Source of the DNA: a virus
Taxonomy: Duplodnaviria > Heunggongvirae > Uroviricota > Caudoviricetes
IMG/VR virus record: IMGVR_UViG_2706794698_000009
Length of the DNA stretch: 15,808 nt
Strand: one strand, 5' to 3'
A program made the translations under genes and the position numbers. The notes under the pieces were generated by a model, which made no database searches, was not told where the DNA came from, and worked only from the letters and a program-made list of their open reading frames with translations. Shown here piece after piece: positions 3,874-15,785 of this stretch (position 1 is its first letter; every line of letters starts with the position of its first letter).

Positions 3874-4480
3874 TTTGCTGCTCCTCATCATATCGACCCT
3901 GCAAGGTCGGTTGGTTTCTCCACAAAACAGAGAAGAACACCTGCGGTGGCAGCCGCCCGGATGGATTGGGTTATGAGCCCNNNNNNNNNNNNNNNNNNNN
4001 NNNNNNNNNNNNNNNNNNNNNNNNNNNNNNNNNNNNNNNNNNNNNNNNNNNNNNNNNNNNNNNNNNNNNNNNNNNNNNNNNNNNNNNNNNNNNNNNNNNN
4101 NNNNNNNNNNNNNNNNNNNNNNNNNNNNNNNNNNNNNNNNNNNNNNNNNNNNNNNNNNNNNNNNNNNNNNNNNNNNNNNNNNNNNNNNNNNNNNNNNNNN
4201 NNNNNNNNNNNNNNNNNNNNNNNNNNNNNNNNNNNNNNNNNTCCATAAATGCCCTCATCGTTGCACCCTGGTCTCTTCCCAGGCGTCAAACCGAATCGCC
4301 ACGCTGGTTAGGCGTCTTATCAGCATCATCATTGACTTGCACATTCCGGCTACCTGGTTTGTTTGCCCGAGCAAGGAGTGGATTGTCCCCTTTAACGTCC
4401 CCAGACCGCTAACGACGCATGTGCCATACGCCGTGTTACAACCAAATTTTGTTAGTACCTTGTTTGTTTGTCTGGAAAGA

Positions 4481-4588: not shown

Positions 4589-5281
4589 TTAATTGTGTCG
4601 CTTAAGGGTTTGTGACTGGCTGATTAAGACCTTTCCAAAGACCATAAACCGGTGTTCATTTTCGCTGGTAATTCCCCATTCACGGTAAATCTGGTTATCA
4701 GAAATCACCAGTAGTTTGTCAGGTATCATTTGCAGTCGTTTGACATAAATTTTATCATCAAAACCAAATACATAGATACCATCTCCATCAAACTGATTGA
4801 TACTGACATCAACGAAGATGAGATCTCCTGGCTCAATGGTTGGACACATACTGTCCCCACGAACGTTGATAACTTTAATGTGATTGGCTGGCCGTCCGCC
4901 AAACATCGATACAGCATTATCAGTTCTGTATTCAATGGCATGAATCACATCAATGACATCACCGCCCTGGATAAGGCCATTTCCCGCACTGGCACTGACA
5001 TCCAGCATTTCAATACGGAATACATCCTTCACCTGCGCAACATCCTCACTAATACTGTTTTTACATACAGTATTACTTTTGACGTCTGAGGTAAAGAGAT
5101 CAGCAATATCAACACCTAAGCTCCTGGCAATATTACTCAGGGCTTGTTCAGTGAATTGTTTCTGCTTACCTGTTTCCAGGCGTGAGATATTCGCCGCATC
5201 CACTCCTATTGCTTCAGCGAGATCGGCGATTTTCATGTTCTTCGCCTGGCGAAGTTGTCTGACTCGGTTTCCTATGTTCAT
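4589..5281 (-). CDS. cI-like prophage repressor (N-terminal XRE-type HTH, C-terminal S24 LexA-like autopeptidase)
   Basis: 230 aa. The N-terminus (IADLAEAIGVDAANISRLETGK) is HTH-like. The C-terminus carries a candidate Ala-Gly cleavage site (SASAGNG), the Ser motif GDSM and the Lys motif VKRL. The gene is divergent from the cro-like gene. Confidence 0.85.
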   Translation of the reverse strand: MNIGNRVRQLRQAKNMKIADLAEAIGVDAANISRLETGKQKQFTEQALSNIARSLGVDIADLFTSDVKSNTVCKNSISEDVAQVKDVFRIEMLDVSASAGNGLIQGGDVIDVIHAIEYRTDNAVSMFGGRPANHIKVINVRGDSMCPTIEPGDLIFVDVSINQFDGDGIYVFGFDDKIYVKRLQMIPDKLLVISDNQIYREWGITSENEHRFMVFGKVLISQSQTLKRHN

Positions 5282-7471: not shown

Positions 7472-7960
7472 ATGAGTCTGTTAAATGACGTTCAGAAATT
7501 CATTGAAGCCCATCCGGGGTGTACTTCCGGAGACATTGCGGATGCTTTTGCAGGTTACTCACGGCAGCGCGTTCTGCAGTCTGCAAGCAAGTTACGTCAG
7601 AGTGGGCGTGTGGCTCACCGTTGTGAAGGAGATACACGCAGACATTTCCCGCGCCTGACTGAGAGAGCGCAGGAGCCGGAACCACAACCAGTTCGTGAAA
7701 CCAGACCTGTGCGCAATTTCTATGTCGGCACTAACGATCCCCGGGTGATTTTGTGCCTGACCCGCCAGGCGGAAGAACTGGAGTCCAGGGGCTTATACCG
7801 TCGTGCTGCAACGGTGTGGATGGCGGCATTCCGTGAAAGCCACTCCCAGCCAGAACGAAACAATTTTCTGGCGCGTCGTGAGCAGTGTTTACGGAAAAGC
7901 AGCAAGCGTGCTGTATCGAGTGATGAGTGGTATCTGTCAGGGAATTACGTGGGGGCTTAA
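7472..7960 (+). CDS. Putative regulator with a PerC-like C-terminal motif
   Basis: 162 aa from the ATG at 7472, which has AGGGGG upstream; the ORF-track GTG at 7466 overlaps the previous stop. The motif AEELESRGLYRRAATVWMAAF resembles PerC-family activators from memory. Confidence 0.45.
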   Translation: MSLLNDVQKFIEAHPGCTSGDIADAFAGYSRQRVLQSASKLRQSGRVAHRCEGDTRRHFPRLTERAQEPEPQPVRETRPVRNFYVGTNDPRVILCLTRQAEELESRGLYRRAATVWMAAFRESHSQPERNNFLARREQCLRKSSKRAVSSDEWYLSGNYVGA

Positions 7961-8308
7961 TGAGTAATAAATATTGCCAGGCGCTGGTGGAACTACGGAA
8001 CAAACCAGCCCATGAACTGAAGGAAGTGGGCGATCAGTGGCGCACGCCGGATAACATTTTCTGGGGAATTAACACTCTGTTTGGCCCGTTTGTTCTGGAT
8101 CTTTTTACTGACGGTGATAACGCCAAATGTGCCGCGTATTACACGGCGGAAGACAACGCGCTGGCGCATGACTGGTCAGAACGTCTTGCGGAGCTTAAAG
8201 GTGCTGCCTTTGGTAATCCCCCATACAGCCGCGCCAGTCAGCATGAGGGGCAATACATCACCGGCATGCGTTACATCATGAAGCATGCCAGTGCCATGCG
8301 TGATAAAG
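7960..8308 (+). CDS. Phage Dam-type DNA N6-adenine methyltransferase (C-terminus masked)
   Basis: The ATG at 7960 overlaps the upstream TAA. Translation contains WRTPDNIFWGINTLFGPFVLDLFTDGDNAKC and the NPPY-type catalytic motif GNPPYS. The frame runs into the N block at 8309. Confidence 0.7.
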
Positions 8309-8622
8309 NNNNNNNNNNNNNNNNNNNNNNNNNNNNNNNNNNNNNNNNNNNNNNNNNNNNNNNNNNNNNNNNNNNNNNNNNNNNNNNNNNNNNNNNNNNN
8401 NNNNNNNNNNNNNNNNNNNNNNNNNNNNNNNNNNNNNNNNNNNNNNNNNNNNNNNNNNNNNNNNNNNNNNNNNNNNNNNNNNNNNNNNNNNNNNNNNNNN
8501 NNNNNNNNNNNNNNNNNNNNNNNNNNNNNNNNNNNNNNNNNNNNNNNNNNNNNNNNNNNNNNTGAGGCGTTTCTGGCGCAGGTTCGCCAGCAGGCGGAAA
8601 AACTGGTCAGGGAGATGGCGGC

Positions 8623-8949
8623 ATGACGACGTTAACTCAATGCCAGCAGCAGGTGCTGGATATGCTGATTTCTTATCAGAAAGAGCGTGGCTTTCCGCCA
8701 ACCAATCAGGAGGTGGCAACCATGCTGGGATACCGTTCAGTGAATGCAGCGGTAGAGCATCTTCGCGCACTGGAGAAAAAAGGCGTCATCACGATAAAGC
8801 GTGGCGTGGCCCGGGGGATAACGCTTCATACCGCGGTGAAGGACGACGACAGCGAGGCGGTCGGGATTATCCGCTCACTGCTTGCCGGTGAGGAAAGCGC
8901 CAGGCTGCGTGCAGCCCACTGGTTACATGAGAGGGGCCTGAAAGTATGA
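8623..8949 (+). CDS. LexA N-terminal DNA-binding-domain protein lacking the S24 peptidase domain
   Basis: 108 aa; MTTLTQCQQQVLDMLISYQKERGFPPTNQEVATMLGYRSVNAAVEHLRALEKKGVITIKRGVARGITL aligns by eye with the LexA N-terminal winged helix. There is no GDSM or VKR peptidase motif. Confidence 0.75.
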   Translation: MTTLTQCQQQVLDMLISYQKERGFPPTNQEVATMLGYRSVNAAVEHLRALEKKGVITIKRGVARGITLHTAVKDDDSEAVGIIRSLLAGEESARLRAAHWLHERGLKV

Positions 8950-9335
8950 AGCTTATTCTGCCTTTTCCGCCCAGCGTCAACACGTACTGGCGACACCCCA
9001 ACAAAGGGGCGTTTGCTGGTAAGAGCCTGATAAGCGCGGCGGGGCGAAAATTCCAGAGCGCGGCGTGCGCAGCAATAGTTGAGCAGTTACGTCGTCTGCC
9101 GAAACCAACGTCGGCACCTGCTTCAGTGGAGATCGTGTTGTTTCCTCCGGATAACCGGATCCGCGATCTGGACAACTATAACAAGGCGCTGTTTGACGCC
9201 CTGACCCACGCGGGTGTGTGGGAGGACGACAGTCAGGTGAAAAGAATGCTGGTTGAGTGGGGACCGGTTATCCCGGAAGGGAAGGTCGAGATCACTATCA
9301 GTAAGTACGAGAAAACGGCGGGTGCAGCCGCCTGA
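8946..9335 (+). CDS. rusA: RusA-family Holliday junction resolvase
   Basis: 129 aa with LPFPPSVNTYWRH ... RDLDNYNKALFDALTHAGVWEDDSQV, matching the RusA signature. The ATG overlaps the upstream TGA. Confidence 0.85.
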   Translation: MKLILPFPPSVNTYWRHPNKGAFAGKSLISAAGRKFQSAACAAIVEQLRRLPKPTSAPASVEIVLFPPDNRIRDLDNYNKALFDALTHAGVWEDDSQVKRMLVEWGPVIPEGKVEITISKYEKTAGAAA

Positions 9336-9354
9336 TTAAGAGGAGAAACGAAGT

Positions 9355-12342: not shown

Positions 12343-12555
12343 TCATGAAAGGTAAACATTGGCAGCTGAAGGGCCACGCAGACCATTTATCCGGCAAAAT
12401 TCCACGCGTAATCCGGTGGTAATTTCTTCTGCATCGCGGAGATTGAGCGCTGAAACATGAAGCTGGACATCGATACGACCATCGGATGGGGTGATAAGAC
12501 CCTTGCCGCTTTTGCCGTCAAAGGTTTTGACAATTCCTGTCATTTTACGGGACAA
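12343..12555 (-). CDS. cspF: Cold-shock-domain protein, CspF/CspH type
   Basis: 70 aa: [27 protein letters not shown] ... [16 protein letters not shown], matching the CspF/CspH family. It is adjacent and divergent to cspB, as in Qin. Confidence 0.8.
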
Positions 12556-12855: not shown

Positions 12856-13071
12856 ATGTCAAATAAAATGACTGGTTTAGTAAAATGGTTTAACGCTGAT
12901 AAAGGTTTTGGCTTTATTTCTCCTGTTGATGGTAGTAAAGATGTGTTTGTGCATTTTTCTGCGATTCAGAATGATAATTTTCGAACCTTATTTGAAGGTC
13001 AAAAGGTTACCTTCTCTGTAGAGAGTGGTGCTAAAGGTCCTGCAGCAGCAAATGTCATAATTACTGATTAA
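12856..13071 (+). CDS. cspB: Cold-shock protein CspB
   Basis: 71 aa: [71 protein letters not shown], near-identical to remembered CspB. It has a long upstream leader typical of cold-shock genes. Confidence 0.9.
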
Positions 13072-13755
13072 AATTCATAGTTTGTCTGTATACGATAACG
13101 AAGAAGGCTGATGCCTGAGTGGAGATACAGACAGAGTGGTGAATATTGGATCTCTTTAATAAATAGTAAGGAGGTCCAATACATGAAACAATGGCCAGCA
13201 TATTTGGCAATAACTTAATCAGGAAAAGTATGCTAACCATTGTGGTGAAGTGCAGGTTTGCTGCATGAATAGTTTTACAGCAGAAGCTAACTGCTGGCAT
13301 AGCAAAACAAAGTGCGTAAGTGGATGACNNNNNNNNNNNNNNNNNNNNNNNNNNNNNNNNNNNNNNNNNNNNNNNNNNNNNNNNNNNNNNNNNNNNNNNN
13401 NNNNNNNNNNNNNNNNNNNNNNNNNNNNNNNNNNNNNNNNNNNNNNNNNNNNNNNNNNNNNNNNNNNNNNNNNNNNNNNNNNNNNNNNNNNNNNNNNNNN
13501 NNNNNNNNNNTGATTTTGAGTCTTTACGTTCTGACATAGGCTTTTCCTGTATAAATGGCCGTATACAGTACACTAAATATGAAAACATATCTCGTATTAT
13601 TATTTAATACATGATTTTCTTTTAAAATAATTACCCACATTTTTAATGTGTCTGTTTTTTAGCGCCGTTGAGAACAATGTTTGCTATAAAAACTAACCCA
13701 TAGACTCCGATCTTTTCAAACATATTGCACCATCTGTGTACATCGGGGCGAGGAT

Positions 13756-13916
13756 ATGAAATCAATGGATAAGTTAACAACAGGTATCGCCTATGGCACA
13801 TCGGCTGGTAATGCTGGTTTCTGGGCATTGCAGTTACTCGATAAAGTAACTCCGTCACAGTGGGCTGCAATCGGTGTGCTGGGTAGTCTAGTTTTTGGCC
13901 TGCTGACGTATCTGAC
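13756..13916 (+). CDS. essQ: Holin, phage-21 S21 pinholin family (C-terminus masked)
   Basis: [53 protein letters not shown] matches EssD/EssQ/S21. The M-K-S-M dual-start motif is present and GAGGAT precedes the ATG. Confidence 0.8.
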
Positions 13917-14165
13917 NNNNNNNNNNNNNNNNNNNNNNNNNNNNNNNNNNNNNNNNNNNNNNNNNNNNNNNNNNNNNNNNNNNNNNNNNNNNNNNNNNNN
14001 NNNNNNNNNNNNNNNNNNNNNNNNNNNNNNNNNNNNNNNNNNNNNNNNNNNNNNNNNNNNNNNNNNNNNNNNNNNNNNNNNNNNNNNNNNNNNNNNNNNN
14101 NNNNNNNNNNNNNNNNNNNNNNNNNNNNNNNNNNNNNNNNNNNNNNNNNNNNNNNNNNNNNGAAT

Positions 14166-14357: not shown

Positions 14358-14763
14358 NNNNNNNNNNNNNNNNNNNNNNNNNNNNNNNNNNNNNNNNNNN
14401 NNNNNNNNNNNNNNNNNNNNNNNNNNNNNNNNNNNNNNNNNNNNNNNNNNNNNNNNNNNNNNNNNNNNNNNNNNNNNNNNNNNNNNNNNNNNNNNNNNNN
14501 NNNNNNNNNNNNNNNNNNNNNNNNNNNNNNNNNNNNNNNNNNNNNNNNNNNNNNNNNNNNNNNNNNNNNNNNNNNNNNNNNNNNNNNNNNNNNNNNNNNN
14601 NNNNNNNTTAAATCAGCAAAAGTTTGTTTTGGTAGATTTGTGTAATCCATAGTCACCTCTGTGTTTATCAGATTGACATCCTCCTCCCGCCAGTGCCCAT
14701 CACTGGTGAGGTAAGATTTAACATATCCGGGGATTTGAAGCCGATAAATCCTGATAAATATCC

Positions 14764-15785
<1,022 letters not shown>

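Follow-up and report, generated by a model that had tools for sequence, protein, structure and literature searches.

A common phage protein with a LexA-type winged helix and no S24 peptidase domain, encoded next to the RusA resolvase gene in lambdoid prophages

We analyzed a stretch of phage DNA of 15,808 nucleotides (hereafter, the window), which covers the early and lysis regions of a lambdoid prophage of the SfV/mEp460/KplE1 type. The repressor gene cI, which encodes an HTH and an S24 domain according to Pfam, is located on the minus strand (4589..5281), with a terminator behind it (4568-4551), and contains an internal SOS box. It is followed along the window by cro, a CP76-type cII, an O-like replication gene, PerC, a phage Dam methyltransferase gene, the gene that is the subject of this work, and the gene for the Holliday-junction resolvase RusA. 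After RusA come KilA-N, DUF968, a Q-type antiterminator, cold-shock-like genes, holin, lysozyme and spanin. The Dam gene (plus strand, 7927..8626) is partly N-masked and was assigned from its Pfam match (PF05869, E=1.5e-26) together with the annotation of an unmasked relative, L001; the RusA gene (plus strand, 8946..9335) was identified by PF05866 (E=6e-15). The gene between these two (plus strand, 8623..8949), located in the nin region and hereafter called LexA-NTD, starts with ATG and encodes a protein of 108 aa that is composed of a winged helix and a C-terminal helical hairpin.

The start codon of LexA-NTD shares an ATGA with the stop codon of Dam, and its own TGA shares an ATGA with the start codon of RusA; with this layout, the gene, part of the early-right operon, is translationally coupled to Dam on the upstream side and to RusA on the downstream side. 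No promoter-like sites were detected on the plus strand from the pR region to position 9336 and, hence, none directly 5' of LexA-NTD, and the terminator scan of the interval between pR and the gene turned up terminator-like hairpins of the weak kind only. Given the ATGA overlaps, the lack of an own promoter and the weakness of these terminators, the simplest reading is that LexA-NTD is expressed from the pR operon, and we infer that it is a delayed-early product, made after induction or infection. The conserved block around the gene is almost devoid of intergenic DNA. A PADLOC search of LexA-NTD and its neighbors gave no meaningful match to a defense system.

The original prediction for this locus recognized the N-terminal winged helix of LexA in the 108-aa protein, including a match across the recognition helix, and profile, sequence and structure comparisons all agree with this assignment. 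The Pfam LexA_DNA_bind profile (PF01726) is matched over its entire length (positions 1-65 of 65) by residues 1-65, with E=2.9e-19 and a score of 69 bits (cutoff 23.7), and a phmmer search against the PDB retrieves the N-terminal domain of E. coli LexA (1lea, E=6.7e-16, residues 2-69), with SVNAAVEHLRAL of the 108-aa protein aligned to SPNAAEEHLKAL of LexA in the region of the recognition helix. Identity to residues 1-69 of E. coli LexA is 51% (35/69). In the AlphaFold2 model of the protein (pLDDT 82), the winged helix-turn-helix (residues 1-68; plus strand, 8623..8826) comprises helices at residues 6-22 and 28-35, a recognition helix at residues 40-52, and wing strands at residues 56-58 and 66-68, and the model superimposes on DNA-bound LexA (3jso_A) with an rmsd of 1.0 Å over 67 aligned columns.

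The similarity to LexA ends before the catalytic part. The Pfam search found no match to Peptidase_S24 (PF00717) in the 108-aa protein, and only positions 1-91 of the 203 in the NCBIfam lexA equivalog profile (TIGR00498) are matched, at 70.8 bits, under the cutoff of 110.95. Without an S24 domain and with a score under the curated cutoff, the protein is not a LexA as that family is defined. Because the S24 domain is absent, intramolecular RecA-stimulated self-cleavage is impossible, so that the absence of a peptidase and the resulting resistance to RecA-dependent cleavage, both claimed originally, are borne out. The protein had been said to end about 35 residues beyond the winged helix; measured from the end of the Pfam domain, this distance is 43 residues, and from the wing, about 38. 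LexA homology runs through the hinge up to A88-G89, which aligns with the cleavage site of LexA, A84-G85. This motif is not kept in distant members of the family and lies in a predicted helix-loop of a protein from which the catalytic domain is absent.

LexA contacts DNA through five residues, Ser39, Asn41, Ala42, Glu44 and Glu45 (PMC3091678). The aligned recognition helix of the 108-aa protein (residues 39-52, SVNAAVEHLRALEK; plus strand, 8737..8778) keeps four of them, S39, N41, A42 and E45, and carries valine at positions 40 and 44 (P40V and E44V). R38, S39, V40 and N41 are invariant across 22 relatives from several genera. In the nine tail-bearing representatives that we compared, which amount to eight distinct lineages and a fragment of the window's own type, S39, N41 and A42 are rarely replaced and E45 is found in seven, whereas position 44 is never Glu, being occupied by V, A, F, T or Y. 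As Glu44 is replaced, the specificity or affinity of the 108-aa protein may differ from that of LexA. Several lineages at 42-49% overall identity still have an unusually LexA-like recognition helix; in the P0137 clade, which is 42% identical overall, the helix reads SPNAAAEHLKALERKG, compared with SPNAAEEHLKALARKG in LexA. Strongly diverged helices occur in P0219, the protein encoded at locus L096 (QNTVFIH), and in P0124 and P0223.

Beyond a flexible linker modeled with low confidence (residues 69-74), the protein ends in a hydrophobic-rich two-helix hairpin that is predicted with confidence (residues 75-102, with helices at 75-87 and 93-102; plus strand, 8845..8928; pLDDT 87-89 over residues 81-100). 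Conservation of the tail extends over 22 relatives (from E. coli, Citrobacter, Salmonella and Hafnia) and reaches lineages with only 39-48% identity, following the pattern ..ΦΦRALL....AR..A..WL...G. When the whole model was compared with the PDB in a fold search, the LexA N-terminal domain was the only match, and the tail matched nothing. On the strength of the model, the hairpin could dimerize as a four-helix bundle or serve for docking to a partner, and we regard it as a candidate dimerization or partner-binding module that possibly substitutes for the one in LexA. Thus, of the original statement that the protein has neither an S24 nor a dimerization domain, the first half stands, but the second has to be revised, given that the conserved hairpin may supply dimerization or partner binding.

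The 327-bp gene is present in 2233 of 5426 complete E. coli genomes (about 41%), mostly at 95-99% identity and in up to four copies per genome. Among phage records, 61 encode the protein, including those of SfV (orf42), SfII, SfIV, mEp460 (gp46), cdtI and 1720a-02 as well as many Stx2a and Stx2c phages, and the window protein is 95-99% identical to its counterparts in SfV, mEp460, cdtI and Stx2 phages. Down to about 40% identity, both the length and the sequence of the protein, with its tail, are maintained across E. coli, Citrobacter, Salmonella, Hafnia, Kosakonia, Buttiauxella, Klebsiella and Enterobacter. The match to phrog_362 extends over the full length of both profile and protein (positions 1-106 of 106, residues 1-108, E=5.2e-59), so that the protein is a full-length member of PHROG 362, tail included. 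An exhaustive HMMER search collected 4628 proteins at E<=0.001, with many short LexA-domain proteins and some containing two tandem LexA domains.

Databases name the protein 'LexA family protein', 'transcriptional repressor', 'unknown' (SfV orf42) or, in PGAP, 'LexA family transcriptional regulator', and some entries call it a 'RecA-mediated autopeptidase', which is wrong. Our full-text literature search found no functional study of the LexA-NTD family. Papers on Stx-phage genomics merely list the gene, and a 'bully phage' preprint on phage 1720a-02, which carries it, ascribes the effect described there to Cro, not to the LexA-NTD protein. The original remark that no function is established is accurate for this family, but a characterized precedent does exist, namely, gp6 of phage GIL01 (PMC6182141). 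LexA-NTD is a real, very common and uncharacterized phage gene, for which the original structural reading is right.

The neighborhood of the gene was compared across contigs of divergent relatives and species-representative genomes, covering Shigella, Kosakonia, Buttiauxella, Klebsiella, Enterobacter and metagenomes. RusA is found downstream of LexA-NTD in 15 of the 16 divergent short-form loci, with a 4-nt overlap in 11. In L088, L095 and L109, other ORFs intervene between the two genes; L105 has lost RusA and kept LexA-NTD; and in L107, the tail is swapped for an unrelated C-terminal domain, with the 4-nt RusA overlap retained. The pairing with RusA occurs alongside CP76 cII, a Phg_2220_C replication gene and an Antiterm-type Q in some loci and alongside YdaT, lambda-P and Phage_antitermQ in others, and Dam and KilA-N/Ant are variably present across the sampled loci. 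No LexA-NTD::RusA fusion was found among the best 150 of the 4628 matches. Linkage to RusA, which the original prediction did not mention, is the strongest contextual regularity of the LexA-NTD gene.

The original prediction suggested searching the prophage for CTGT-N8-ACAG-like boxes. A perfect box, TACTGT-N8-ACAGTA (TACTGTTTTTACATACAGTA; 5053..5072), indeed lies within cI, and the window has no other strong LexA-type operator. The box is, however, a feature of the cI lineage and not of LexA-NTD. It scores 25.8 bits with a rough SOS weight matrix built from known E. coli sites, which themselves range from 13 to 27 bits; the shuffled window yields 0.19 matches of at least 13 bits. The box occupies codons of the linker that joins the HTH domain to the S24 domain. 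This linker is hypervariable among seven cI homologues with 68-97% amino acid identity, whereas the arms, ACTGT-N8-(A/C)CAGT, are invariant. Among the 63 invariant residues with at least 4-fold degeneracy in six sequences, only five are encoded by the same codon throughout, and the Thr, Val and Ser codons making up the arms of the box account for three of these five. The invariant arms and fixed synonymous codons imply that the box is selected at the DNA level.

The same box is present in the cI homologues of ST64B, Eeyore and Klebsiella phages, and we therefore rejected it as a private target of LexA-NTD. The cI lineage is represented in 19 Klebsiella and 24 Salmonella phage records and the LexA-NTD protein in 3 of each, and loci L085-L088 combine LexA-NTD with other cI alleles that have no box. 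With the box in phage groups that mostly do not carry the gene, and gene lineages devoid of the box, there is no evidence that this is a dedicated target; it is a candidate target for which host LexA is presumably the main ligand, with the 108-aa protein as a possible second. An SOS-inducible internal promoter producing a C-terminal CI fragment was also considered and rejected, there being no conserved internal start codon and a terminator located after cI. A limited literature search found no earlier report of an SOS operator inside cI, and this element may be a new feature, separate from LexA-NTD.

Elsewhere in the family, we counted CTGT/ACAG inverted repeats with spacings of 0-16 in both orientations over 74 kb from seven divergent loci. 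Enrichment is confined to the 8-bp spacing, with 8 occurrences against about 1.1 expected, a count that covers gene-bearing loci only and so says nothing about association between the gene and SOS boxes. No alternative dedicated operator emerged from these seven loci, with spacings other than 8 at the chance level. Four loci, L095, L109, L096 and L105, contain a box of 21-27 bits directly at or after the -10 element of a promoter-like site located behind a terminator (for instance, TTGCAA-17-AATAAT in L095 and TTGATA-17-TACTGT in L105), heading an operon that consists of a small ORF, LexA-NTD, in some cases a 67-aa ORF, RusA, DUF968 and Q. In L105, the first gene of the operon encodes a DinI homologue (E=2.9e-25). 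A box at the head of the operon predicts that in this clade LexA-NTD is itself an SOS gene, like lexA. Because the recognition helix of P0219 is diverged, the 26-bit box of L096 is not necessarily autoregulatory and more likely serves host LexA. In 7 of the 16 loci, no box of at least 17 bits was found within the 2-8 kb available on either side of LexA-NTD; as a positive control, the same scan detected an upstream box of at least 17 bits in 5 of 6 genuine full-length lexA genes.

Considering these observations together, we tentatively favor, with a probability of roughly 40%, the reading that the 108-aa protein is a RecA-insensitive surrogate of LexA that occupies SOS operators during lytic growth, in line with the original functional idea of SOS-box or operator occupancy, which is plausible. 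Under this scenario, the LexA-NTD protein would be made from pR, in the delayed-early phase after induction or infection, would dimerize via the hairpin and would bind operators of the CTGT type, resembling SOS boxes. In an SOS-induced cell, in which host LexA is destroyed, the LexA-NTD protein would re-occupy the SOS operators, so that LexA-type repression is restored or reshaped during phage growth. Plausible targets would be the SOS boxes of the phage itself, in this case the one inside cI, and host SOS genes. The SOS-box promoter of the sister clade, accompanied in L105 by DinI, fits a role in SOS damping or feedback. Counted against the surrogate are the loss of Glu44, the 7 of 16 loci without a box, the presence of the cI box in phages that mostly do not carry the gene, and the weak operator binding of the isolated LexA N-terminal domain; furthermore, gp6, the sole truncated LexA to have been characterized, recognizes another palindrome and is an activator (PMC6182141).

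A surrogate of this kind could also provide a rationale for the pairing with RusA. The ruvAB operon is induced in the SOS response (PMC3091678), and RuvA inhibits RusA in vitro (PMC2832678). Re-repression of ruvAB would relieve the inhibition by RuvA and give RusA access to junctions, which is a speculative explanation of the pairing.

If gp6 is taken as the guide, LexA-NTD might instead be a phage-specific transcription factor that binds a non-SOS phage operator and acts on phage promoters, leaving the host SOS regulon unaffected. We consider this somewhat unlikely, even if gp6 itself demonstrates that a protein consisting of LexA_DNA_bind only can be a late-promoter activator (PMC6182141). 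The systematic change at position 44, the strong divergence of the helices in P0219, P0124 and P0223, the many loci without any SOS box and the merely generic label, 'transcriptional repressor', in PHROG and RefSeq would all suit such a factor, but no alternative conserved palindrome was found in the seven loci scanned, non-8 spacings of CTGT/ACAG being at chance level, and the conserved block leaves almost no intergenic DNA. Moreover, Q already provides late-gene activation in these phages, and in several lineages the helix stays LexA-like at 42-49% overall identity. The timing of Q or of the late genes, or the nin-region operon, are examples of what a factor of this type might target. By analogy with gp6, activator roles and a diverged specificity should be treated as real alternatives for the LexA-NTD protein.

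The genomic context raises another possibility, that LexA-NTD is an accessory of RusA, forming a physical complex with it, serving as its DNA-targeting subunit, or acting as its regulator or antidote, with the LexA ancestry being incidental. The position of RusA downstream in 15 of 16 loci, with the 4-nt overlap in 11 despite the differing replication, cII and Q modules, the retention of this overlap in L107 where the tail has been swapped, and translational coupling, which is typical of stoichiometric partners, point in this direction. We nevertheless deem it unlikely: LexA-NTD persists without RusA in L105, ORFs separate the two genes in L088, L095 and L109, and no fusion of the two was found among the best 150 of 4628 matches. 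RusA of phages 82 and DLP12 works alone, as a homodimer. Besides, overlapping genes resist separation by recombination, so that the linkage can be partly mechanical. Both the gp6-type reading and that of a RusA accessory are compatible with a LexA surrogate. Finally, LexA-NTD could be what is left of a captured lexA gene, decaying and without a present function, that travels with the nin region. LexA homology that continues through the hinge to the A-G motif and then stops is what a truncated capture would leave, and many frameshifted or fused variants are found in databases. Against decay stand the conservation of length, sequence and tail across genera to about 40% identity, the maintenance of position and translational coupling, and the presence of the gene in E. 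coli (2233 of 5426 genomes, with identities mostly of 95-99%), all of which make this explanation highly improbable.

Returning to the LexA surrogate, the SOS response governs prophage induction, Shiga-toxin release, mutagenesis and antibiotic tolerance, and a RecA-proof LexA made by a phage, if real, would mean that induced prophages actively reset the damage response of the host and that polylysogens interfere with each other via SOS operators. Coupling to RusA could tie the transcriptional control of ruvAB to the resolution of junctions by the phage. In its fullest form, which we regard as distinctly unlikely, a RecA-proof surrogate would be deployed together with RusA, re-closing SOS operators, switching ruvAB off, damping SOS, silencing rivals and keeping the cI operator closed. 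Were this the case, RuvA would no longer block RusA, the damped SOS output would include mutagenesis and SulA, and the silenced rivals would be colicin plasmids and prophages with LexA-regulated antirepressors. Given its presence in about 41% of complete E. coli genomes and in many Stx2a and Stx2c phages, LexA-NTD would then commonly modify SOS output and Shiga-toxin phage induction, an influence that has been overlooked. Should the protein turn out to be gp6-like instead, phages would have put the DNA-binding domain of LexA to new use a second time, independently of gp6.

Among known systems, E. coli LexA itself (1lea, 3jso) shares with the 108-aa protein the winged-helix fold and the residues S39, N41, A42 and E45. 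LexA, however, has the S24 peptidase and dimerization domain, with Ser119 and Lys156, which is missing from the 108-aa protein, whereas the latter has a helical hairpin of 30 residues, the substitutions E44V and P40V, a phage location and the coupling to RusA. The isolated N-terminal domain of LexA binds operators weakly, and the natural LexA 1-84 fragment is a weak binder that is degraded by ClpXP. A functional analogy, that is, RecA*-resistant DNA binding of the LexA type, is provided by the LexA(Ind-) mutants (for example, G85D and S119A; 1jhf and 1jhh) and by the 1-84 fragment. The mutants keep the dimer formed by the C-terminal domain, whereas the 108-aa protein has a conserved C-terminal module of its own; compared with the fragment, it has a different C-terminus (…GLKV). 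In the damping of SOS, DinI, which binds RecA filaments, may be a functional parallel, and phage mEp460 encodes a dinI homologue with two SOS boxes, but fold and mechanism are unrelated, as DinI acts on RecA and not on DNA.

The closest precedent in terms of architecture is gp6 of the Bacillus tectivirus GIL01/Bam35, which, like the 108-aa protein, is a phage-encoded PF01726 protein without the cleavage domain (66 aa; E=7.9e-14) and, in a further likeness to LexA-NTD, is an early product of an SOS-inducible temperate phage. This truncated LexA homologue binds a non-SOS palindrome, GaCACAnnTGTGaC, at about -43.5 and activates the late promoter P3 (PMC6182141). The function of gp6 was demonstrated by experiment, whereas the LexA-NTD protein is known here from its sequence and model. 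Furthermore, gp6 has no tail and adjoins gp7 and the DNA polymerase, in contrast to LexA-NTD, which adjoins RusA. BLASTP gave no alignment between the 108-aa protein and gp6 at E<=100, and the 108-aa protein is closer to proteobacterial LexA; the two are separate captures from different host lineages and form distinct families of one kind. The LexA-NTD family thus belongs with the known phage-borne truncated homologues of LexA, among which three features set it apart, namely, a recognition helix that has stayed LexA-like, the conserved hairpin at the C-terminus and the coupling to RusA.

A canonical SOS box lies at 5053–5072 of the window, within the linker codons of the CI repressor gene (cI, 4589–5281, minus strand), and cI-internal SOS boxes are also present in several related loci (L001, at 6654; L084, at 836; and L097) as well as in the cI genes of ST64B (L089), L090, L091 and L092. 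The cI linker is hypervariable except for the arms of the box, which are invariant in seven homologues, and of the only five degenerate residues in cI that are fully codon-invariant, three make up these arms. The internal box may act as a LexA roadblock to cI transcription or, alternatively, may mark a LexA-controlled internal promoter, for which TTTACC-17-TACTGT is the candidate. A limited literature search returned no earlier report of an SOS box within cI.

In a sister clade, a promoter with an SOS box heads the operon that comprises a small ORF, the LexA-NTD gene, a 67-aa ORF, RusA, DUF968 and Q. The box directly follows or overlaps the promoter -10 element (L095, 4560–4579; L096, 4561–4580; L105, about 7306; L109, about 7467), and given this position at the promoter of a Q-containing operon, Q and late-gene expression may be directly LexA-gated in this clade. 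A DinI homologue is the first gene of the SOS-box-headed operon in L105. In the P0137-type clade, two conserved small ORFs, of about 80 aa and 67 aa and with no Pfam match, flank the LexA-NTD gene (L095, 4713–4961 and 5405–5608; L105, 7640–7879 and 8309–8512; L109, 7575–7868 and 8312–8515).

Phage mEp460 (L002) has four strong SOS boxes in total, including two upstream of its dinI homologue, at 23255 and 23283 (23.4 and 21.3 bits, scored with a rough weight matrix built from E. coli sites). A second strong SOS box, (T/C)ACTGTAAAAATAAACAGTG, recurs in 22 of 84 loci. It is located at or just before the annotated start of a late-region N6/N4 DNA methyltransferase gene in the Q–holin interval (mEp460, 41021; SfV (L003), 34170; L096, 7739), which suggests that the methyltransferase is LexA-controlled. 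Separately, a CTGT-N8-ACAG match, GGCTGTAAGTAACCACAGAG, recurs 2.9–4.1 kb upstream of the LexA-NTD gene (20/84 loci); with its GC-rich spacer and poor flanks, it is probably not an operator and has probably been carried along within conserved coding sequence.

Variant domain architectures were also found. A 150-aa protein from an Enterobacter MAG prophage (L107, 8001–8453) shares the LexA winged helix of the LexA-NTD family, but its C-terminal domain of about 80 aa is unrelated and has no Pfam match; the 4-nt overlap with RusA is retained despite this difference. Other proteins, including P0131, P0133, P0147 and P0152, contain two tandem LexA_DNA_bind domains per chain and no S24 domain; such a protein might work as a single-chain pseudo-dimer, able to bind a palindromic operator with no dimerisation domain of its own.

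Several genes in the window are partly masked by runs of N (approximately 2440–2660, 3980–4240, 8309–8562, 13330–13520, 13915–14165, 14360–14620 and 14930–15180). One of them is Dam, which immediately precedes the LexA-NTD gene and has most of its C-terminal half hidden in this way; the unmasked relative L001 encodes an ordinary 217-aa Dam at this position. The window lacks the Q–holin methyltransferase module, and its Q-to-holin interval is filled by two cold-shock-protein-like genes, of the CspA family by sequence (12343–12555, minus strand; 12856–13071, plus strand), where related phages carry methyltransferase or stx genes.
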